Part shown: one piece after another, positions 4,350-42,961 of the stretch | Layout: every line of letters begins with the position of its first letter | Numbering within the stretch: the first letter of the stretch is position 1 | Origin: Colwellia psychrerythraea | GTDB lineage: Bacteria > Pseudomonadota > Gammaproteobacteria > Enterobacterales > Alteromonadaceae | Reading direction: 5' to 3' | DNA length: 64,000 nucleotides | Assembly (NCBI GenBank): GCA_002163005.1 | Contig: MAAF01000024.1 | Coordinates: 1,933 to 65,932, forward strand | Made by a program: the position numbers and the translations under genes | The notes under the pieces: model-generated | The model's database searches: none | What the model was told of the DNA's origin: nothing | What the model saw: the letters and a program-made list of their open reading frames with translations, nothing else

Positions 4350-4478
4350 TATACCCAAACTACCTGAAGATACAGGTTTCAGCTGGAATTAGAAATGCCT
4401 TTAGGCAAGGCATTGATTGAAGAGAATAGTTATTCTATTGTCGAAATCAATAACGCCCCATAAAGCGTTTCTAAACCC
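4350..4478. repeat. Palindromic interspersed repeat between liuR and liuA
   Basis: Outer arms TTAGAAATGCCTTTA / TAAAGCGTTTCTAA; core GGCAAGGCATTGATTGAAG.GAAT.GTTATTC shared with 30948-31216 and 34905-35106; 5' end TATACCCAAACTACCTGAAGAT shared with 30160-30206. Confidence 0.75.
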
Positions 4479-21719: not shown

Positions 21720-21781
21720 TAGCGTATTCTTTGTAAACAGGTCAAGCTTTTAACAATCACTAAACCAGATTTTTTAAAAAT

Positions 21782-22018
21782 GTATTATACACCAACTCTA
21801 TTACAAATCGTTACGCTATCTATACAGTAAAACACAGGCTGAACATTTATTATTAACTCAGTTTCTAGCAAGCAGTGATTTTAACAACTCTCTGCTCTTA
21901 TTAACTCCCTTATATATCATTGTTTTTGTTTATTATTGTTTTTATATCTCAACCCAGTTTCATGTTGTAGTTTGCTCATTCATTTTGAATGAGCTTTTTT
22001 TTGCCCAAAATTCGGGCT
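21782..22018 (+). ncRNA. Tandem non-coding unit, copy 1 (candidate sRNA with own upstream region and terminator)
   Basis: 260-bp period duplicate; U-rich tract at 21912-21942; terminator GCTCATTC-ATTTT-GAATGAGC-T8 at 21974-22002. The duplication is certain; the sRNA call is inference. Confidence 0.55.
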
Positions 22019-22041
22019 GTTGGACCAAGTTTATTCAAAAG

Positions 22042-22277
22042 GTATTGTATACCAACTCTATTACAAATCGTTACGCTATCTATACAGTAAAATACGGGCT
22101 GAGCATTTATTATTAACTCAGTTTCTAACAAGCAGTGATTTAAAATACTATCTGCTTCTATTGACTCCCCCATATATCATTGTTTTTGTTTATTATTGTT
22201 TTATATATCAACCCTGTTTCATGTTGTAGTTTGCTCATTCATTTTGAATGAGCTTTTTTTTGTTCAAAATTCAAGCT
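22042..22277 (+). ncRNA. Tandem non-coding unit, copy 2
   Basis: 16 differences including one indel over 212 nt versus copy 1 by hand alignment; identical terminator ending at 22261. Confidence 0.55.
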
Positions 22278-24400: not shown

Positions 24401-25660
24401 CTAGCTCATATGAACTAACATATGACTTGGTTTCTCTAGGAATGATTTCCATAGGTTACAAAAGCGTGCGATAGTCCCGCCATCTATAACTCGGTGATCA
24501 CCAGACCAGCTCACTTGCATAATACTGCGTGCTTCGACTTCGCCTTGCTCATTAAAGCGCGGTAATTTTTGTAACTTGCCCAATGCAACAATAGCAACTT
24601 CTGGCTTATTAATGATAGGGGTTGCCACAGTTCCACCGATTGCACCAATATTAGAAATGGTAATAGTGCCCCCTTTTAGATCTTCACTGGCAACACGTCC
24701 GCTACGGGCATCATTTGTTAAGCGCATAATGTCGTTAGCTAAATCTAATATTGACTTAGTTTGTACCTGTTTAATATTAGGTACAAGTAAACCGACTTTA
24801 GAATCAACCGCCATACCAATATTATGATCATTAAAGTAAGTGAGCTCAGTGCAATCATCATTTACTTTTGAATTAACCAATGGGTACTCTTTAATCGCTA
24901 ATGACATAGCTTTCATAAAGAATGGCATCATAGTTAACTTAATATCTTGCTTAGCGTAGACTTCTTTTAATTCTCCGCGTAAAGCGATAAGTTCAGTTAA
25001 ATCGATTTCTTCACAATAGGTAAAGTGAGGAATAGTACTGACACTGTTTTGCATCGCTGTTGCCATCACCTTTTTAATACCGCGAATAGGCTCTACGCTC
25101 GTACCTCCAATAACAGTACTATTTGCCACAACAGCGGATACAACACTCGAGCCATTTTGACTATAAGCAACGACATCACCTTTATAGACTCGCCCTTTTT
25201 TACCACTACCTTCAACTTGATGAATATTAATATCAAGTTCGCGAGCTACACGTCTAACCGCAGGGCTTGCTAATGCTTTACCACTTACAGGTTCATCTTT
25301 TACTGATGATGGAGCAGCTGATGGTGTTGCGACTTCTTTTGCTACAAAATTCGTCTTTACGGTATCAACTTGTGCTTTAACTTCAGTTTCAGCGGCAACA
25401 GTATCGTTAGTGCCAGTATCACCTTCAGGAGTCATAGCAAAAAGAGGCGAATGCACTTTAGCAATTTCGCCTTGCTTATAATAAAGCTTTTCTACAACAC
25501 CTGAATGCATTGCTGGGATTTGTACTAAGGCTTTATCTGTCATCACATCAGCAATAGGCTGATCTTCAACAATAATTTCACCTTCTTTAACTAACCATTC
25601 GACGAGCTCACACTCAACGATACCTTCACCAATATCAGGTAATATAAAATCAATACTCAT
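24401..25660 (-). CDS. bkdB: Branched-chain 2-oxoacid dehydrogenase E2 (dihydrolipoyl acyltransferase)
   Basis: 419 aa; lipoyl domain MTDKA, ASPAVRR E3-binding, DHRVIDG. Confidence 0.92.
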   Translation of the reverse strand: MSIDFILPDIGEGIVECELVEWLVKEGEIIVEDQPIADVMTDKALVQIPAMHSGVVEKLYYKQGEIAKVHSPLFAMTPEGDTGTNDTVAAETEVKAQVDTVKTNFVAKEVATPSAAPSSVKDEPVSGKALASPAVRRVARELDINIHQVEGSGKKGRVYKGDVVAYSQNGSSVVSAVVANSTVIGGTSVEPIRGIKKVMATAMQNSVSTIPHFTYCEEIDLTELIALRGELKEVYAKQDIKLTMMPFFMKAMSLAIKEYPLVNSKVNDDCTELTYFNDHNIGMAVDSKVGLLVPNIKQVQTKSILDLANDIMRLTNDARSGRVASEDLKGGTITISNIGAIGGTVATPIINKPEVAIVALGKLQKLPRFNEQGEVEARSIMQVSWSGDHRVIDGGTIARFCNLWKSFLEKPSHMLVHMS

Positions 25661-25689: not shown

Positions 25690-26667
25690 TTAAAAATTAA
25701 CGCTCTTTATGATTGCTTCATATACTTTTAAGTGATCGCTAACATACTCTTTTTCTAACGCTAATGGATAAGGTGTATCAAGACCACATACACGAGCAAT
25801 AGGCGACTCTAGGTGTAAAAAACATTCACTTTGAATAGTGGCGGCAATTTCACTGGCAAATCCAGCCGTTAATGGTGCCTCTTGACTAATAAGCAAACGG
25901 CCTGTTTTCATCACAGAATTACTAATAGTTTCTATATCCCAAGGTAAAATAGTACGTAAATCTACCACTTCACAAGAGATACCATCATTGCTAGCCATTT
26001 GCGCTGCTTTTTCAATGATTTCCATTTGCGCACCCCAAGCGAGTAAAGTGATATCAGTACCTGTTTGTACCACTTCAGCTTTACCCAAAGGCAATTGATA
26101 ATCTTCTTCTGGTACTTCGCCAACTGATGCTCGGTATAAACGCTTTGGTTCAAAAAATATCACCGGGTTATCATCACGAATAGAAGCAAGCAATAAGCCT
26201 TTAGCTTGGTATGGATTACGTGGAATAACCACTTTTAAACCAGGCGTATGAGCAAAGTAAGCTTCAGGCGATTGACTATGATACAAGCCACCCGCAATAC
26301 CGCCACCGTATGGACTACGAATGGTAAGTTTACCAACATTAAATTCATTACCGCTACGGTAACGAAATTTGGCCGCTTCATTAACGATTTGGTCAAAAGC
26401 TGGGAAAATGTAATCGGCAAATTGAATTTCAGCGATAGCAACACTGCCTTGGGCAGCTAGGCCATTAGCAAAACCAATAATCCCCTGCTCAACTAATGGA
26501 GTATTAAAGCAACGTGCTTTACCATACTTTTCTTGCAGACCACTTGTGGCGCGAAACACTCCACCAAAATGACCTACATCTTCACCAAAACATACCGTGC
26601 TTTTATTTTCAGCCATGGCAATATCAAGTGCACTATTAATAGCCTGTAATAAATTTATTTGCGCCAT
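25690..26667 (-). CDS. bkdA2: Branched-chain 2-oxoacid dehydrogenase E1 beta
   Basis: 325 aa; [22 protein letters not shown]. Confidence 0.92.
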
Positions 26668-26669
26668 GA

Positions 26670-26756
26670 TTAAAATTTCCCTGCTGCTGTAGTTGGGTAA
26701 GCTTCATGGAAGTCAGTGTTGATACTACACACTTGCTCAATAAGGATTTGCGTCAT
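26670..26756 (-). repeat. 89-bp junction repeat unit 2, encodes 28-aa mini-ORF
   Basis: [37 protein letters not shown], identical to 26759-26845. Confidence 0.85.
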
Positions 26757-26758
26757 GA

Positions 26759-26845
26759 TTAAAATTTCCCTGCTGCTGTAGTTGGGTAAGCTTCATGGAA
26801 GTCAGTGTTGATACTACACACTTGCTCAATAAGGATTTGCGTCAT
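26759..26845 (-). repeat. 89-bp junction repeat unit 1, encodes 28-aa mini-ORF
   Basis: Same ORF; starts 2 nt after the bkdA1 stop. Confidence 0.85.
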
Positions 26846-26847
26846 GA

Positions 26848-28029
26848 TTAAAATTTCCCTGCGGTAAATGGGTAAGCTTCTGGGTATTTATTAACGTGAG
26901 CTTTGACTTCCTCTAATTGCGCTTGTAACTGCGCTGATGGCACATCATAAACATCCGTTATCATGGTATCTATATGTGGTTTATCAATTTTCTCCGCTAC
27001 TTTGACTGCCGCTAACACTTCTTCTCGATACTTTTCGAATAAAGTCGTTTCTTGTGCTTCATCCCACCAGTTTTGTTTTATTAACCAGTTTTTCATCCGT
27101 AAGATAGGATCATGACTTTGCCATTTAGCCTCTTCTTCTTTGGTACGATAACCCGATGGATCATCCGAAGTAGAATGTGCGCCAAGACGATAAGACATCG
27201 CTTCAATTAAGACAGGTTTGCTTTCTTTTACCGCATAAGCGCGAGCAATTTGTGTTGCTTTAAGTACTGCAAGAATATCATTTCCATCAATACGGATTGT
27301 TTTAATACCATAACCAACACCACGAGAAGCAATACCGTTACCTTTAAACTGTTCATCTGAAGGCGTAGAGATAGCATAACCATTATTTCGGCAAAAAAAG
27401 ATTACCGGGGCTTCTTGTACTGCTGCCATATTGAGACCCGCATGAAAGTCACCTTCTGATGCAGCGCCTTCACCAAAGTAACAAATGGTTACCGCATCAG
27501 CACCTTGCAATTTTTGCCCATACGCATAACCTGTTGCTTGCGGAATTTGTGTGGCAAGCGGTGAAGAAACAGTCATACAGTTCAGTGCTTTAGAACCATA
27601 ATGTATTGGCATTTGACGGCCTTTACCTAAATCACCCGCATTACTAAATAACTGATTCATTAGGTCTTCAAGATCAAAACCACGATATATTAAGGCGCCT
27701 TGTTCACGATATTGCATCATGATCATATCTTGAGGCTTTAAGCCCGCAGCACCACCAACACTAGTAGCTTCTTCGCCTAATGCTGTCATATAAAAACTCA
27801 AACGACCTTGGCGCTGTGAAGCAACCATACGTTCATCTAATACTCGATGAAAGGCAAGACTATGATAAATTTTAGTCGCCAACGCTTGATCTATATCCGG
27901 TAAATCAGCACCGGGGTAAGTGATACCGTCTTGGTCTAAAATTCTTAATTCAGGAATTTCAACGCTGGTTCCATCAATAAAAGTAGCTTGATGCACTACG
28001 GGTCCATCATTATAAAGTTCTGTGCTCAT
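26848..28029 (-). CDS. bkdA1: Branched-chain 2-oxoacid dehydrogenase E1 alpha
   Basis: TPP motif GEGAASEGDFH...RNN, YRLGAHSTSDDP; ATG at 28029 preferred over the track start 28059. Confidence 0.92.
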   Translation of the reverse strand: MSTELYNDGPVVHQATFIDGTSVEIPELRILDQDGITYPGADLPDIDQALATKIYHSLAFHRVLDERMVASQRQGRLSFYMTALGEEATSVGGAAGLKPQDMIMMQYREQGALIYRGFDLEDLMNQLFSNAGDLGKGRQMPIHYGSKALNCMTVSSPLATQIPQATGYAYGQKLQGADAVTICYFGEGAASEGDFHAGLNMAAVQEAPVIFFCRNNGYAISTPSDEQFKGNGIASRGVGYGIKTIRIDGNDILAVLKATQIARAYAVKESKPVLIEAMSYRLGAHSTSDDPSGYRTKEEEAKWQSHDPILRMKNWLIKQNWWDEAQETTLFEKYREEVLAAVKVAEKIDKPHIDTMITDVYDVPSAQLQAQLEEVKAHVNKYPEAYPFTAGKF

Positions 28030-28211
28030 AATGTTCTCTTCTGTTTCCCTAACGCGCAATATTTAGCGGTTAAAGTCTGCGAAAGTTGATTAAATATAGA
28101 GAAACTATACTTAACAAATTTTGTTTATTTTAAGTACGCTCATGTAACTCTGAGTTGTTAGTAAATTAAATGGGTATTAGCTAGGCTTATTATTTTTTAG
28201 TATAGACAATT

Positions 28212-30947: not shown

Positions 30948-31216
30948 TAATACCAAGTACATTAATTAATTAACCACTTAGCGAGAATTAAAAGGCTTAG
31001 AGGCAAGGCATTGATTGAAGCGAATGGTTATTCCCTTCTCAAAATCAATAACGAGGCATGTAAGCCTTTTAAACTCGCCCTTTGGGAGTTCACTAGCAAA
31101 CTAATAACCGCTCAAAATTAAAGAAATATAGAATGACTATGTTTAAGTAATTTTGATTGTTTTAAGCTCGCTAATATAACTCTAAGTTGATCAATTTATT
31201 AGTATAATTGGTATAA
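30948..31216. repeat. MITE-like element with TAATACCAA / TTGGTATAA ends
   Basis: Termini seen directly; internal arms AAAAGGCTTA / TAAGCCTTTT; homologous to the reverse complement of 34905-35106. Confidence 0.7.
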
Positions 31217-35177: not shown

Positions 35178-36416
35178 ATGACGAGCGAAAAGACACATAA
35201 CACATCTTTTATTCACAAAATAAAATCAACCAGTTTGGTTATCCAAATAATTATCGCTATTATTTTAGCTAGCTTACTCGCAATAATATCTCCCGAATCA
35301 GCCAAAGCATTTGGCATGCTCGGTAGCTTATTTGTTAACGCCTTAAAAGCTGTTGCTCCTATTCTCGTCTTGGTATTAGTTACGTCAGCAATAGCTAACC
35401 AAAAAATTGATAGCAGTGCTGAACTAAAACCTATTGTTGGCTTATATTTTTTAGGCACCTTAAGTGCCGCTTTTGTTGCTGTTCTATTAAGCTTTGCTTT
35501 TCCCACTGAACTTACCTTAAACCTTGCAGGAGCCACTGCTAATCCTCCACAACAATTAACAGAAGTATTGGCTACGCTCGCCTTTAAAGTTGTTGAAAAT
35601 CCAGTGACGGCTGTTGCTAGTGGTAACTTTATTGCTGTGCTTGCTTGGGGATTAGGTTTAGGCTTTTCATTAAAGCATGCAAGTGGATCAAGCAAGAGGA
35701 TGGTGCATGATTTAAGTGAAGCCATCTCTAGTATTGTGCGCATTGTAATACGTTTTGCGCCACTAGGTATTTTTGGTTTAGTGGCCAATACCATCGCCAC
35801 TACTGGTTTTGGGGCTTTAGCTGAATACAGTCATTTGGTTGCAGTACTGCTTGGTGCAATGTTAATTATCGCTTTGCTAGTTAATCCTTTAATTGTCTTT
35901 ATCATCACTAAGAAAAACCCTTATCCTTTAGTTTTTACTTGCCTAAGAGAGTCTGGCATTACCGCATTTTTCACCCGTAGCTCAGCCGCAAATATTCCGG
36001 TTAATATGGCTTTGTGTAAAAAGTTAGATTTACATGAAGATACCTACTCAGTATCGATTCCATTAGGCGCAACCATTAATATGGCGGGCGCTGCGATTAC
36101 AATTACTGTATTAACTTTAGCCGCTGCTTATAGTCTACATATTGAAGTTAGTTTTGCGACGGCTATTTTATTATCGGTGGTTGCCTCTATTTCAGCTTGT
36201 GGCGCTTCTGGTGTAGCCGGTGGTTCACTATTACTCATCCCATTAGCCTGCAGTTTATTTGGCATTAACAATGATGTCGCCATGCAGGTTGTTGCTATTG
36301 GCTTTATTATTGGTGTTATTCAAGACTCAGCTGAAACGGCTTTAAACAGCTCTACTGATGTGGTGTTTTCCGCGGCAGCTTCCCACCATATAACGAATAC
36401 CAATCAGACTAACTAA
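35178..36416 (+). CDS. sstT: Serine/threonine:Na+ symporter
   Basis: 412 aa; [38 protein letters not shown]. Confidence 0.92.
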
Positions 36417-36558
36417 GTGATCTTTTTAAATGGCCTAAATACTTAATAACATCGTTGCTTTCAATCACAATAAGCCAGCTATTGCTCAATCAAGCGCCTT
36501 GTTCTTGAAAATTTATCCTCATTAAAATTTGAACCATTAATTAATCTGATTGGTATTA
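36396..36558. repeat. About 163-bp MITE-like element overlapping the sstT 3' end
   Basis: AATACCAA...TTGGTATTA ends; homologous to 39235-39397 and, inverted, to 59723-59893. Confidence 0.8.
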
Positions 36559-36689: not shown

Positions 36690-38078
36690 CTAAGTATGGC
36701 GTATATACATACCTAATTGTGAGTCACTGACAATAAAGGGTTGGCAGATAAAGTGACCAATTGCCGCTACCAATTCATTGTCGTAATATAAAAAGGCAAT
36801 ACGTTTACGCTGCCATGGCGCTATATTTAACTCTTGTAGTACTTTTTTAACCGTACGAGAGTGTTGTCTAAAATGAGGCAAGCATTTCGGGTTTTCATGG
36901 CGAAAACGAACGCTAACGAGCTGATCTCGTTTAGGCAAAGCAATACGGGGCAATGGGTTGTTTTGATTTTTACCAAGAGTAGAATTTATCATACTATTAG
37001 TATTAAAAATCAGTTCACCTAGGTTGTCCGGTAAGGCCAATACACTAGTACCAAGAGGTAGGGTATCTTGGAATAATTCAACTTGTCCTTGCCAGTCACT
37101 AATATCATTATATGCTGGCGTTAAAAATAATATACCTTTAAAGCGTCTGAAAACGTGCTGTGCGACTTTAATTTGAGGGTTTTTGTCTTCATCAGCCTGC
37201 AGCTGATGTCTTACTTGATTAACTTGTTCTGTACTTGGCATTAAAGAACCTTTTTGCGCCATAAAAAAGCGAATTAGGTTATTAAAGCGTGCTGGCGATA
37301 GTGCCGTTAATGCCTCAATATGTAAGCCCGCTTCACCCGTTTTACAAACCGTTAAGTCTTGCTCGGCAAGTTCATCTAATAACTCTTGCCCTGCTAAACA
37401 GTGACTAGCGCTACGGTTAATCGTGTTATTAATACTAGGCCAACGCTCACGCAAGAGTGGTATTATTTGTTGTCTGATAAAATTACGATCAAAACAAGTA
37501 TCATGGTTTGATTCATCTTCCACCCAACTAAGTTGATGAGTTTTAGCATAACCTTCTATTTCCTGTCGAGACACTTTCAGTAAAGGACGAACTAATAGAT
37601 GCTGACCAAGCTGAGTTTGCACTGACATTGCAGAGAGTCCTTTTAAACCAGCACCACGTTTAAGTGCTAATAAAAAGGTTTCACTTTGATCATCGCTATG
37701 ATGCCCCGTTAACACTAAGGACTTTTTATTCCTCAATGATTTAAGCGCATCATATCTGGCGTCGCGTGCCAATGCTTCCAATGACTGTTGTGCTTTTGAC
37801 TGTACATTGACGCACTTAACAACAAGATTAACTGACAACTTAGCGCACTCTTGTTTAGCAAATTTCTGCCAGCGCTTAGCATTGTCACTCAAGCCATGAT
37901 TAACATGACAAACAGTGATTTCATTGCTGATAAGTTTTTTTTGCTTTAGTTGAGCTAAAGCATGCAAGAGCACCTGAGAGTCGATACCACCACTATAGGC
38001 AATAATTAACTCAATATTTCCGTGTATTTCGAAAAGAAGCTTGAGGGTGTTATGAAGGGATGAAGTTAGTTTATTCAT
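36690..38078 (-). CDS. tilS: tRNA(Ile)-lysidine synthase
   Basis: 462 aa; AYSGGIDS, GHHSDDQSET, RPLL, DRNFIR. Confidence 0.93.
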   Translation of the reverse strand: MNKLTSSLHNTLKLLFEIHGNIELIIAYSGGIDSQVLLHALAQLKQKKLISNEITVCHVNHGLSDNAKRWQKFAKQECAKLSVNLVVKCVNVQSKAQQSLEALARDARYDALKSLRNKKSLVLTGHHSDDQSETFLLALKRGAGLKGLSAMSVQTQLGQHLLVRPLLKVSRQEIEGYAKTHQLSWVEDESNHDTCFDRNFIRQQIIPLLRERWPSINNTINRSASHCLAGQELLDELAEQDLTVCKTGEAGLHIEALTALSPARFNNLIRFFMAQKGSLMPSTEQVNQVRHQLQADEDKNPQIKVAQHVFRRFKGILFLTPAYNDISDWQGQVELFQDTLPLGTSVLALPDNLGELIFNTNSMINSTLGKNQNNPLPRIALPKRDQLVSVRFRHENPKCLPHFRQHSRTVKKVLQELNIAPWQRKRIAFLYYDNELVAAIGHFICQPFIVSDSQLGMYIRHT

Positions 38079-39234: not shown

Positions 39235-39397
39235 TTATACCAATTGCACTAACTAAGTGGTCATTTTCAAATGGCCTAAATATCCAATAACGTCGTTGCT
39301 TTCAATCCCAATACTCCCTATTGCTCAATCAAACGTCTTGTTCTTGAAAATTTAATCTCATTGATTTCTGTAATCTTAGCTAATCCAAATGGTATTA
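39235..39397. repeat. About 163-bp MITE-like element abutting the dnaE stop codon
   Basis: TTATACCAA...ATGGTATTA; same orientation as 36396-36558. Confidence 0.8.
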
Positions 39398-42300
39398 TTT
39401 AAATTCCATGGCGACACGTTCTTCACCAAGCAATGTTTTTAATTCGTATAGTAACATATCGGTTGGCGTTACTCGCCATTGAACGCCTAACTCAAGCATA
39501 GCTTGGGCTTCTTCGCGCTGATAAAAAACTCTCACTGGACAGGTACCTTCTTTAAAAGGGGTTAATACCTGAGTAAACTGTTCGATAAAATCATCTGCTA
39601 TCAAGCTGTTATCCACTTGAATATCAATAGAGCTAAGATAATTTTCTCGCGCATCAGTGATTGTCATTATATCCCGAGCGGTCATTGTATTACCACCAGA
39701 ATAATCATCAAAGCTGACCTGTCCACTACAAACCAAAATAGCGTCATTTACCAGCATCTCTGCAAAACGATCATAGTCATCTGGAAAAAGACGGATATCC
39801 ATGCGGGCACTTTTATCATCTAGAGTCACTAATGCCCAGCGACGCCCGCGTTTATTGACTAAGACACGCACACCTATCACTAAACCAACAGCAACCGCTT
39901 GCCTATCTCGACCCGTTGGTTGCATGACAACTAGTCGGCTCGAAGAATATTTTTTTATTTCAGTCAGGTAGCGATTAATGGGATGACCGGTTAAATAAAG
40001 CCCTAAGGTTTCTTTTTCGCCATCTAACCACTTTTCCTCTGGCCAAGCTCTGACTTCTTTAAAAGTTTGTCTGGAATCAGTTTGTTCGTCATTAATTAAA
40101 CCAAATAGGTCATTTTGACCTAACGATTCTGCTTTCGCATGTTGTTCTGCTGCTTTAATTGCTTCAGGTAAGGTTTCAAAGAGAGCCGCTCGGTTAGCGC
40201 CCTGCTCTTTTGCGGTCCCTTGTACATACTTAGGACCGAGACTATCCATAGCTCCCGATTTGATTAATTTCTCTAAAACGCGTTTATTGGTTTTTTTAAG
40301 ATCAAGACGGGCACAAAAATCAAATAAGTCAGTGAAAGGGCCGTCTGATTGTCGGGCACTAATAATGGCTTCAATAGGGCCTTCACCAACCCCTTTAACA
40401 GCACCGATACCATAAACAATTTGGTTATCATCATTAACGGTAAATTTATATTGCCCAGCGTTAACATCGGGTGGCAATAAATCTATTTCCATATTGCCAC
40501 ACTCATCAACTAAGGTGACAATTTTTTCAGTGTTGTCCATATCAGCAGACATTACCGCGGCCATAAACGGTGCAGGAAAATGTGTCTTCATCCATAACGT
40601 TTGATAAGACACTAATGCATAAGCCGCAGAGTGCGATTTGTTGAAACCATAACCAGCAAATTTTTCAACCAAATCGAATATTTTCATGGCAAGTTCGCCA
40701 TCAACACCACGATCTTTCGCACCTTGTTCAAAACCGGCTCGCTGCTTAGCCATTTCTTCTGGTTTTTTCTTACCCATTGCACGGCGAAGCATATCTGCGC
40801 CACCAAGGGAATAACCGGCAAGTACCTGCGCAATTTGCATTACTTGCTCTTGATACAAGATAATTCCGTATGTTGGCTCAAGCACAGGTTGTAAATCTTC
40901 ATGTTGCCAAGTCGCATCAGGATAACTGACTTCTTCACGGCCATGCTTACGCTCAATAAAGTTATCAACCATGCCTGATTGTAATGGCCCAGGTCTAAAT
41001 AAAGCCACCAGTGCGATAATATCTTCAAAGCAATCAGGCTTTAATTTATCAATTAAAGATTTCATTCCACTAGATTCAAGCTGAAATACTGCTGTAGTTT
41101 TCGAGGCAAGTAATAACTTAAAGCTGGCTTTGTCTTCAAGATTAATTTTGGTGATATCAATTGGCTCTTTGCCGGCTTTAAGCAATTTTGCATCAGCCAT
41201 TTCAATGGCCCATTGCAAAATGGTCAGTGTTCTTAGTCCTAAGAAATCGAACTTAACTAAGCCAGCGTCTTCTACATCATTTTTATCAAACTGGGTTACT
41301 GGGTTATTACCTTCATCATCACAATATAAAGGTGCAAAATCGGTAATAGTAGTAGGCGAAATAACAACGCCACCGGCATGTTTACCGGCATTACGCGTTG
41401 TTCCCTCAAGAATACGGCACATATCAATGAGATCTTTTACTTCACTATCTTGCGCGTATATTTCAGGTAATTTAGGCTCTTCTTCAAACGCTTTCGCTAA
41501 AGTCATGCCAGGAGTTGGTGGGATCAGCTTTGAAATTCTATCAACAAAACCATAAGGATGCCCAAGCACACGACCAACATCACGGATAACCGCTTTCGCC
41601 GCCATGGTACCAAAAGTAATGATTTGTGAAACCGCATCACGACCATAAAGTTCAGCAACGTGATCGATAACTTCGTCACGTCTATCCATACAGAAATCAA
41701 TATCAAAATCAGGCATAGAGACACGTTCAGGATTTAAGAAGCGCTCGAAAAGCAAATCATATTCAAGTGGGTCAAGGTCGGTAATATCGAGTGCATAAGC
41801 AATGAGAGAGCCTGCACCTGAACCACGCCCAGGGCCAACAGGGATATTGTTGTCTTTACTCCACTGGATGAATTCCATCACGATCAAGAAATAACCGGGG
41901 AAGCCCATGTTATTAACAACTTCCAGCTCAATAGCTAAACGTTCATCATAAGGTTTTCTTATTTGGGCAAAATCATCCGCTTGCCGGTCGAATAATTGAT
42001 CAAGTCGTTTTTCTAAACCTTTTTCAGATACTTTAATAAAAAAGTCATTTATCTCCAAACCTTCCGTGGGGAAATCGGGTAATACGTACTCACCTAAGGT
42101 GACCGTGACATTACAGCGTTTAGCAATTTCGACACTATTGGCTAAAGCTTCAGGGATGTCACTAAAAAGCTCACACATTTCCGCTTCACTGCGTAAGTAT
42201 TGCTCTGAGCTATAACGTTTAGGGCGACGTTTATCATCTAGGGTAAAACCATCATGAATGGCTACACGGATCTCATGCGCATCAAAGTCATCAGGAGAAA

Positions 42301-42961
42301 GAAACATCACCTCATTAGTGGCGACCACGGGTAAGTTTTCTTGTTCGGCTAAGTCGACTGCAAGGTGGATGTAATTTTCTTCATCGTCTCGACCCGTTCT
42401 CACTAATTCAAGAAAAAAACAACGATCGAAATGTTGCTGATAGAAGCTGACCATTTCAGCAACTAATTCTGTATTGCCTTTTAATAAGGCTTTACCAATA
42501 TCTCCTTCTCGTCCCCCCGAGAGAATGATTAAACCTTCTTTAAATTCAACTAGCCATGACTTATCAATAACGGCTTTATTTTGTACGTGTCCACGCATAT
42601 AAGCTTTAGAGATAAGTTCAGTTATATTTTTATAACCAACATTGTTAGTTGTAAGCACGACTATCCGTGATAGCTCATCTTCTAACTCTTCACTTTTCAC
42701 CCAAAAGTCGCAACCTATAATGGGTTTAATACCAGCACCATGAGCAGCATGATAATACTTAACAAGACCGCATAAGTTAGTTTGGTCTGTTAAGGCAAGC
42801 GCTGGCATATTGAGCTCAACAGCTTTGCCAATGATGGGCTTAACTTTCTTTAAACCATCACACATAGAAAAGTCACTATGTACGCGTAAATGGATAAATT
42901 TAGGTGGTACAAAAACGTTTGGTTCTTCTTCTGTAAATATCTCAGTCGTGCTTTTAGTCAT
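39395..42961 (-). CDS. dnaE: DNA polymerase III alpha subunit
   Basis: 1188 aa; [37 protein letters not shown]-fold. Confidence 0.97.

Follow-up and report, generated by a model that had tools for sequence, protein, structure and literature searches.

The nearest described system to the locus treated here is the array of mycobacterial interspersed repetitive units (MIRUs) in the senX3-regX3 intercistronic region, where tandem units of 77 and 53 bp separate two genes (Supply et al., 1997; PMC12548453, PMC3184786, PMC4213456). This array consists of three 77-bp units in strain H37Rv versus two 77-bp units and one 53-bp unit in CDC1551, and the senX3-regX3 MIRUs have promoter activity. MIRUs are dispersed over approximately 40–50 loci per genome, are thought to be mobile, and show target-site duplications, imperfect inverted repeats, and –4 nt overlaps. 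We analyzed a 64,000-nt stretch of DNA from Colwellia psychrerythraea (GenBank assembly GCA_002163005.1, contig MAAF01000024.1, positions 1,933 to 65,932; hereafter the window, with positions counted from its first letter) in which an exact tandem repeat with a period of 89 nt lies between bkdA1 and bkdA2, the genes for the E1alpha and E1beta subunits of 2-oxoisovalerate dehydrogenase. Each unit holds an open reading frame (ORF) of 28 codons. We propose, at a probability of approximately 0.6, that the unit is a relay mini-cistron that arose by duplication of the gene junction, that it has been kept open because translation of E1beta depends on termination-reinitiation, and that its copy number varies as a variable number tandem repeat (VNTR).

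Three other kinds of system are relevant for comparison. Chimeric ORFs at join points arise from tandem duplications that have their end-points in two adjacent genes, and such duplications are mostly large, unstable, and transient. Termination-reinitiation coupling occurs at tight gene junctions, for example trpE-trpD and galT-galK (surveys of Huber et al., 2019, 2023, as cited in PMC12548453). Short ORFs that only deliver ribosomes to a downstream gene, as in synthetic bicistronic designs, are discussed in the same review (PMC12548453).

The junction was first described from coordinates on the minus strand. The gene bkdA1 (26848–28059), coding for E1alpha, the 2-oxoisovalerate dehydrogenase alpha subunit, was taken from the ORF list and identified by Pfam E1_dh matches on identical products. 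The protein has 403 aa when counted from a TTG start and 393 aa in other gene callers, which use an ATG ten codons in. Human BCKDH E1alpha structures match it at 1e-121 with the alignment reaching through the C-terminal tail. This tail (...KYPEAYPFTAGKF-TAA, encoding ...EAYPFTAGKF) is followed by a TC spacer and then by two mini-ORFs of the same sequence, each of 28 codons plus a stop: mini-ORF 1 at 26759–26845 (unit 1, 26757–26845 with its TC spacer) and mini-ORF 2 at 26670–26756 (unit 2, 26668–26756 with its TC spacer). The array ends at the gene for E1beta, bkdA2 (25690–26667; 325 aa; Pfam Transket_pyr and Transketolase_C), which has its ATG at 26667, starts with ATGGCGCAAATAAAT (MAQINLLQ...), and has the head ATGGCGCAAAT.... 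Downstream in the same operon, 29 nt after E1beta, is bkdB (24401–25660, minus strand), which encodes the 419-aa E2 dihydrolipoyl transacylase. The operon is flanked by a phosphoglucomutase gene and an M2 peptidase gene.

Each 89-nt unit is composed of an ATG, 28 codons in all, a TAA, and a 2-nt spacer, and units 1 and 2 are 100% identical. The exact period-89 repeat extends over 26665–26862, which corresponds to two units plus a common 20 nt; TRF reported 26657–26880 with a period of 89 and 2.6 copies. The common 20-mer, GCAGGGAAATTTTAATCATG, occurs three times in the 64 kb versus 0.02 occurrences expected by chance. Its first copy (26843–26862) contains a weak Shine-Dalgarno (SD) sequence (GGGA) together with the TAA that ends E1alpha, the TC spacer of 2 nt, and the start codon (ATG) of mini-ORF 1. 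The second copy (26754–26773) is the unit-to-unit junction and joins the tail of unit 1, TAA, and TC to the ATG of mini-ORF 2, and the third (26665–26684) joins the tail of unit 2, TAA, and TC to the E1beta ATG; all three copies are on the minus strand. TAA-TC-ATG is therefore present at all three junctions in the window, as is characteristic of coupled, co-oriented ORFs. No further copy of the unit core was found anywhere in the window, and gene callers called the 87-nt unit ORFs at none of the loci retrieved. An earlier sequence-only reading of the window had described an exact 89-bp tandem repeat filling the E1alpha/E1beta junction, with the order E1alpha-TAA-TC-mini-ORF-TC-mini-ORF-TC-E1beta on the minus strand and a coupling signal present three times, and these coordinates bear out each part of that description.

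The bkd junction resembles the senX3-regX3 MIRU array in that tandem units (77 and 53 bp there, 89 bp in Colwellia) lie between co-transcribed genes and vary in number among strains. In both, a short ORF in each unit abuts or overlaps the stop and start of its neighbors so that coupling through the array is possible, and the bkd units fit the general pattern of 40–100 bp tandem units between operon genes, each with a coupled short ORF. By contrast, the Colwellia unit is a single-locus element that appears to derive from its own flanks, has no inverted repeats, is joined through a spacer of +2 nt, and includes a duplicate of the C-terminal tail of the upstream protein. Moreover, the senX3-regX3 MIRUs have promoter activity whereas the Colwellia unit has no promoter-like site. 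The Colwellia unit is not a member of the MIRU family. As a comparison, classical coupled junctions also involve co-oriented genes for the subunits of one heteromeric enzyme, with stop and start a few nucleotides apart and the SD sequence inside the upstream ORF, but Colwellia has a chain of 2–5 identical junctions separated by 28-codon ORFs. The unit is also like ribosome-delivering upstream ORFs and bicistronic designs in that the peptide sequence appears to be largely irrelevant. However, those ORFs are at the 5' end of the message and are initiated de novo, whereas the Colwellia unit is internal, would be fed by ribosomes leaving E1alpha, and shows a residual amino-acid constraint in its C-terminal half. 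We know of no natural case of a tandemly reiterated coupling junction, and a literature search of incomplete coverage found no report of one in a 2-oxoacid dehydrogenase operon.

To establish how many units are present, we compared assemblies that encode the identical E1beta protein and found 1, 2, or 4 units. The gap between E1alpha and E1beta is 91 nt (1 unit) in five of these assemblies, 180 nt (2 units) in one (MAAC01013824.1), and 358 nt (4 units) on one 308-kb contig from the Joint Genome Institute (JGI), where the third unit is a variant. Three further contigs terminate within the array. Depths of Logan unitigs were also used. In run X1 the flank depth was ~258, the depth of the unit core 776 (3.0x), and that of the unit-to-unit junction 493 (1.9x), giving ~3 copies; run X3 likewise gave ~3 copies (flank ~42, core 146 or ~3.4x, junction 91.5 or ~2.2x). 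Run X7 gave 3–3.6 copies (flank ~160, core 448 or ~2.8x, junction 414 or ~2.6x), run X4 gave ~2 copies (flank ~9, core 18.8 or ~2.2x), and run X8 gave 1.5–2 copies (flank 3.6–5.9, core 6.84, junction 4.8). The overall estimate across independent runs is ~2 to 3.5 units. The window's own count of two is an assembly-level count that could be a collapsed higher number. In X1 and X3 the core depth is approximately the junction depth plus one and so does not call for identical copies at other sites in the genome; the relation is looser in X7, where the two estimates disagree. The raw-read run X22 contained no reads of this organism.

These data show that the repeat is real DNA and that the window's exact copies were amplified recently. 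Copy number is polymorphic among strains in the way of a MIRU-like VNTR (1, 2, or 4 units, with 0–3 units in sister lineages). The sequence-only reading had allowed that reads might support a single copy and that the repeat might be an artefact of assembly; given assemblies that vary in unit number, contigs that end in the array, and depths of ~2–3.5, this was not upheld. Metatranscriptome contigs in X2 and X14 contain the unit-to-unit junction, which places the array on the operon mRNA, with DNA carry-over possible.

We then examined the distribution of the unit among relatives. A scan of species-representative genomes with E1beta was used to find relatives, and the first 29 loci among the matches listed were examined. 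In 28 of the 28 of these loci that retain E1alpha, which come from many genera, the junction is –8 to +3 nt long and has no unit. The closest of the matches listed was Litorilituus at 91% E1beta identity. Closer relatives were reached with a metagenome scan for the junction signal and with contig look-ups from E2 homologues (87–94% identity). This revealed diverged homologous units at the same junction in 10 other lineages, in a clade that includes Colwellia demingiae, and 16 distinct versions of the unit in all. One unit is present in C. demingiae (L097, VOLT01000003.1), in L103 (peptide MAQIYIDQVCSINTDFHVAYPATAAGKL), and in L093/L095, and one MSQ-type unit each in L091, L094, L099, L100, and L111. 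L092 and L113 have two different MSQ-type units each, and L116 has three different units (MTQIYIDQVCSIHIDF..., ...SINIDF..., and MMQIYIDQMCGINTYF...). No unit is present in L104–L109, L110, or L096; a unit-free junction of –8 to +3 nt was seen in Litorilituus, L096, L110, Cognaticolwellia, Thalassotalea, and more than 20 other genera.

Divergence at synonymous sites (dS) in the flanking genes is 0.6–1.1 across the unit-bearing clade. The unit is older than one strain, since these sequences place it in a clade that includes C. demingiae. In a tree of E1alpha plus E1beta, L104 (0 units) is the sister of L095 (1 unit) with 100% bootstrap support. This nested position indicates that the unit was secondarily lost in the L104 lineage and, because it could be lost, that it is dispensable. 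The loss appears to have been precise, restoring the ancestral junction as recombination between flanking direct repeats would.

Several further observations concern loci without units. In X14, a metatranscriptome contig ~93–95% identical to the window (compared over 26500–27050) has 26664 and 26843 directly adjacent; this zero-unit transcript of a related organism is found alongside unit-bearing transcripts in the same sample. The zero-unit L104–L109 and one-unit L093/L095 lineages both come from the same JGI samples. In L110 a phage-integrase-like fragment (1–440) precedes the bkd operon, where every other locus of the clade with enough upstream sequence has the phosphoglucomutase gene, indicating that the locus is rearranged in L110.

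The unit itself points to where it came from. Its last 12 codons, stop, and spacer copy the end of E1alpha, the tails differing by one extra Ala codon, and both a 12-nt stretch (GAAGCTTACCCA) and the 20-mer GCAGGGAAATTTTAATCATG are identical between the unit tail and the E1alpha tail. At the other end, the first 11 nt of the unit match the E1beta start ATGGCGCAAAT at 11 of 11 positions in C. demingiae, L103, and unit 3 of L081, and at 10 of 11 in the window; MSQ-type unit heads are similar to the MSQ head of E1beta in L110. The likeness of the head to E1beta spans only ~11 nt, and later conversion from E1beta could have contributed. Across the middle 36 nt a weak likeness to the E1alpha tail is retained, with 13–16 of 36 positions agreeing in register versus 9.3 ± 2.5 in other registers (P ~0.01–0.12). 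The lengths also agree, because 21 E1alpha codons, TAA, 2 nt, and 7 E1beta codons add up to 89 nt. A 3' part like the end of the upstream gene, a 5' part like the start of the downstream gene, and absence from outgroups are the marks of a join-point ORF, and a precise loss by repeat recombination would be a further likeness. The Colwellia unit differs from other join-point ORFs in being 89 nt long, persistent through a dS of ~1, intact in 16 variants, and re-amplified.

It is well supported by these comparisons that the unit arose by tandem duplication across the bkdA1/bkdA2 junction, with break-points that are approximate. The E1alpha tail (26917–26922) and codons 2–3 of E1beta (26659–26664), both on the minus strand, share the hexamer GCGCAA (Ala-Gln) in the same codon phase. 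Its starts are 80 nt apart in the ancestral unit-free junction and 258 nt apart in the two-unit window. It is possible, at low confidence, that this in-phase microhomology seeded the founding in-frame duplication; such a model gives an 80-nt founder unit and requires a later in-frame insertion of 9 nt. An origin from a foreign donor, that is, from the junction of another species, was also considered and was dropped once diverged homologous units were found in sister species. The sequence-only reading had pictured an old junction duplication, with a C-terminus copied from the E1alpha tail and a start resembling that of E1beta, which diverged and was recently duplicated again. The tail and head identities agree with this picture, and the diverged units in sister lineages, the unit-free outgroups, and the 1–4 copies found with the same E1beta support and extend it.

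The pattern of change among units is informative about what has been retained. Across the 16 distinct units we counted ~76 parsimony changes, 0 indels, and 0 in-frame stops, with the ATG, TAA, and 28 codons always kept; the units thus stay stop-free and in frame in 16 of 16 cases, as had been read from the window alone. The spacer has a constant length of 2 nt but a variable sequence (TC, TT, TA, TG, CT), giving TAA-NN-ATG at every junction. Approximately 3.4% of single changes create a stop, for which the probability of no stop is ~0.07–0.12. Because this is insufficient, indels and the retention of start and stop were judged against neighboring spacers instead. Two true intergenic spacers beside the operon range from 104 to 291 nt and from 278 to 501 nt in the same taxa, with 0.045–0.125 gap events per substitution. 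At these rates 3–13 indels are expected in the units versus none observed, and the joint neutral probability of the unit architecture is between ~2e-3 (by the most conservative count) and <1e-6. That indels are absent and that the ATG, the TAA, and the length of the spacer are all retained indicates selection on the architecture.

Within this fixed architecture the two halves of the peptide evolve differently. Codons 2–16 have 7 synonymous and 46 non-synonymous changes (ratio of non-synonymous to synonymous rates, omega, ~1.4), show no third-position excess (15/16/13 changes at the three positions), and change at approximately the rate of the neighboring spacers. By contrast, codons 17–28 have 12 synonymous and 11 non-synonymous changes (omega ~0.29, P = 0.003), and A19, Y20, P21, T23, A25, and G26 are invariant in 16 of 16 units. 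The tail of E1alpha itself is protein-invariant throughout the clade. The Tyr codon of the unit (TAC or TAT) agrees with that of E1alpha in the same genome in 7 of 13 unit/genome pairs. Codons 22–25 (TTAA) differ from E1alpha, so tail conservation there is not explicable by gene conversion.

We also looked for signals in the nucleic acid. Each ATG is preceded at 10 nt by GGGA(AA), which lies within the final part of the upstream ORF, as is usual at coupled junctions. The predicted SD/anti-SD duplex has an energy of –5.1 kcal/mol versus –7 to –12 in other genera, assuming a gammaproteobacterial anti-SD. The minimum free energy of the junction-region RNA is –40.7 versus –50.5 on average for shuffled sequences (z = +2.2), meaning that the region has less structure than the shuffled sequences. 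Within the unit there is no promoter-like or terminator-like site, no Rfam family match, and, by folding, no hairpin or inverted-repeat structure, and four peptide variants had no Pfam match at E <= 10. An RNA element, such as a leader, an attenuator, or a REP-type stabilizer, was considered and rejected because the RNA is less stable than shuffles, has no Rfam match, and contains no promoter or terminator.

The relay that we favor would operate as follows. In an ancestor of the Colwellia clade that includes C. demingiae, a segment starting ~21–22 codons upstream of the E1alpha stop and reaching a few codons into E1beta would have been duplicated. The extra copy would be an in-frame chimera in which an E1beta-type start is fused to an E1alpha-type tail, and it would bring its own junction signal of a weak SD (GGGA), TAA, 2 nt, and ATG. 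A ribosome ending E1alpha at the TAA would re-initiate 2 nt downstream on the mini-ORF, read 28 codons, stop at an identical TAA-NN-ATG, and re-initiate on the next unit or on E1beta. Because the SD is weak and the RNA unstructured, E1beta output would depend on this hand-over of ribosomes. A stop, a frameshift, or loss of a start inside a unit would then be polar and so would be purged by selection, while the N-terminal half of the peptide, irrelevant to the relay, would drift freely. Whole units would be gained and lost through unequal recombination or slippage between repeats, producing a nearly neutral VNTR of 0–4 copies, and precise loss of a unit would restore the ancestral junction and be tolerated. 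Copy number could matter quantitatively. In a toy recursion, J(k) = a + r*J(k–1), E1beta initiation approaches a fixed point as units are added and becomes less dependent on E1alpha.

Several points weigh against this proposal. The evidence for a relay of translation, including translation of the units themselves, is evolutionary and indirect, and the copy numbers come from assemblies and unitig depths. Stop-freeness alone is not significant (P ~0.07–0.12), so that the case rests on the absence of indels and the retention of start and stop, with indel rates borrowed from neighboring spacers. The 16 units are phylogenetically related and the parsimony counts approximate. In-frame indels, which would be tolerable if only the frame mattered, are absent from the units. 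Finally, the synonymous excess in codons 17–25 (omega ~0.25–0.29, P = 0.003) is not predicted by a pure relay, and it may reflect selection on the peptide or gene conversion by the tail of E1alpha.

These last points bear on the idea that the units encode a functional microprotein. In this explanation the 28-aa product is itself selected, its C-terminus mimics the E1alpha tail and binds E1beta as an assembly chaperone, placeholder, or competitor at the alpha-beta' interface, and copy number sets the peptide dose. The low omega of the C-terminal half, which includes codons 22–25 that are unlike E1alpha, the six invariant residues, and a length strictly kept even though in-frame indels would not break a relay are all in its favor. 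In addition, the Tyr of EAYP aligns with Tyr393 of human E1alpha, whose tail we take to be placed at the alpha-beta' assembly interface. Assembly of E1 is reportedly impeded by the substitution Y393N at this site (Fisher et al., 1991, cited in PMC4190873). However, the peptide has no domain match, its 15 N-terminal residues evolve neutrally, and its tail tolerates non-conservative replacements, with FR for HE in C. demingiae, V for E, A for T, and L for F in L103, and E for K in L113, whereas the tail of E1alpha itself does not vary. The SD/stop/start signal accounts for part of the conservation of the unit tail, and the unit is absent from all other genera examined. Loss of the unit in the nested L104 lineage together with the neutral N-terminal half argues against an essential peptide, and we consider a functional microprotein quite unlikely; it is kept in view mainly because some codon-level constraint remains on the tail. 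A more specific form, in which the detached E1alpha tail has become a microprotein whose AYP.T.AG core docks on new E1beta and guides or gates assembly of the alpha2beta2 E1, with copy number as a heritable and reversible control of dose, is highly doubtful.

Selection could instead act on copy number, each relay step shifting the ratio of E1beta (and E2) to E1alpha or weakening the dependence of E1beta on E1alpha translation, so that the array would be a contingency locus that tunes expression. Tuning of the alpha:beta ratio by copy number and a peptide mimic of the E1alpha tail had both been suggested in the sequence-only reading, and both are conjectural. The occurrence of 1, 2, ~3, and 4 units among assemblies and runs with the same E1beta protein is what this would produce, and since all junctions are identical, the recursion given above would yield a stepwise output approaching a fixed point. 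But the same variation is equally expected of a neutral VNTR, most sister lineages have one unit, and a period of 89 nt changes far more slowly than classical contingency repeats. The arrays of diverged units in L092, L113, and L116 show that some copies are long-lived and do not switch rapidly. We regard such a tuner as unlikely. An untranslated neutral spacer, in which a tolerated duplication remnant has an accidentally open frame and E1beta is initiated de novo at its own SD, would account for the dispensability of the unit in L104, for an N-terminal half changing at roughly the intergenic rate, and for an absence of stops that is compatible with chance. It is nevertheless very unlikely, given 0 indels versus 3–13 expected, an ATG, TAA, and 2-nt spacer kept in 16 of 16 diverged units, adjacent true spacers that vary two- to three-fold in length in the same genomes, and an SD that is weak. 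Least credible, to the point of being nearly negligible, is that the repeat is an assembly artefact or a dispersed mobile repeat (MIRU-, MITE-, or REP-like) inserted at the junction. Short-read assemblers do mis-count tandem repeats and several contigs end in the array, and MIRUs are a precedent for mobile units with coupled ORFs. Against an artefact, junction unitigs have 2–2.6x the flank depth in independent runs, and independent assemblies have 2, 3, or 4 units, some with distinguishable variants. Against a mobile repeat, the unit is homologous at each end to one of the genes that flank it, six of six metagenome matches to the junction pattern are bkd loci, and core depth is roughly covered by one locus (closely in X1 and X3, less so in X7). 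No sign of a dispersed mobile family with inverted repeats was seen in the 64-kb window, which has no second copy of the core, in the depths, or by folding, whole genomes not having been scanned.

Other features of the window were noted in passing. At 21764–22277 on the plus strand, in the intergenic region upstream of the M2-peptidase gene, there is a tandem duplication of ~260 bp with two copies that are 89–92% identical. An intrinsic-terminator-like hairpin, GCTCATTCATTTTGAATGAGC, with T8 after it, closes each copy, and no Rfam family was matched; the two could be tandem paralogous small-RNA genes. A dispersed repeat of 84 nt with internal palindromic segments is present at 4393–4476 and 30991–31074 (76% identity, 26.6 kb apart) and may be a REP/MITE-like element. 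An intergenic repeat of ~160 nt at 36397–36558 and 39237–39397 (79–88% identity, 2.84 kb apart) lies beside the ORFs at 36690–38078 (minus strand) and 39395–42961 (minus strand) and could represent a regulatory or terminator region common to both sites, or a small RNA. The E2 protein of the clade is short (419–429 aa), whereas most homologues at <=78% identity in other Colwelliaceae have 515–556 aa and extra precomputed Pfam matches. This suggests that a domain, possibly a second lipoyl domain, was lost or gained.

The mechanism of translational coupling, that is, RNA unfolding versus re-initiation, is not yet firmly established (2025 review, PMC12548453). The bkd locus is a natural experiment on this question, because close relatives differ in how often (0–4 times) they reiterate one and the same coupling junction, on an mRNA that has no inhibitory structure and a weak SD. 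Re-initiation, unlike de novo initiation, predicts a protected frame, start, stop, and spacing combined with a drifting half-peptide. With C. demingiae in culture and natural copy-number alleles available, the relay efficiency per junction is directly measurable. These data also serve as a warning for annotation that "intergenic" tandem repeats inside operons may be translated. More broadly, they indicate that a small duplication of the junction is tolerable in a gene pair for a heteromeric enzyme and can seed a VNTR or a new microprotein.

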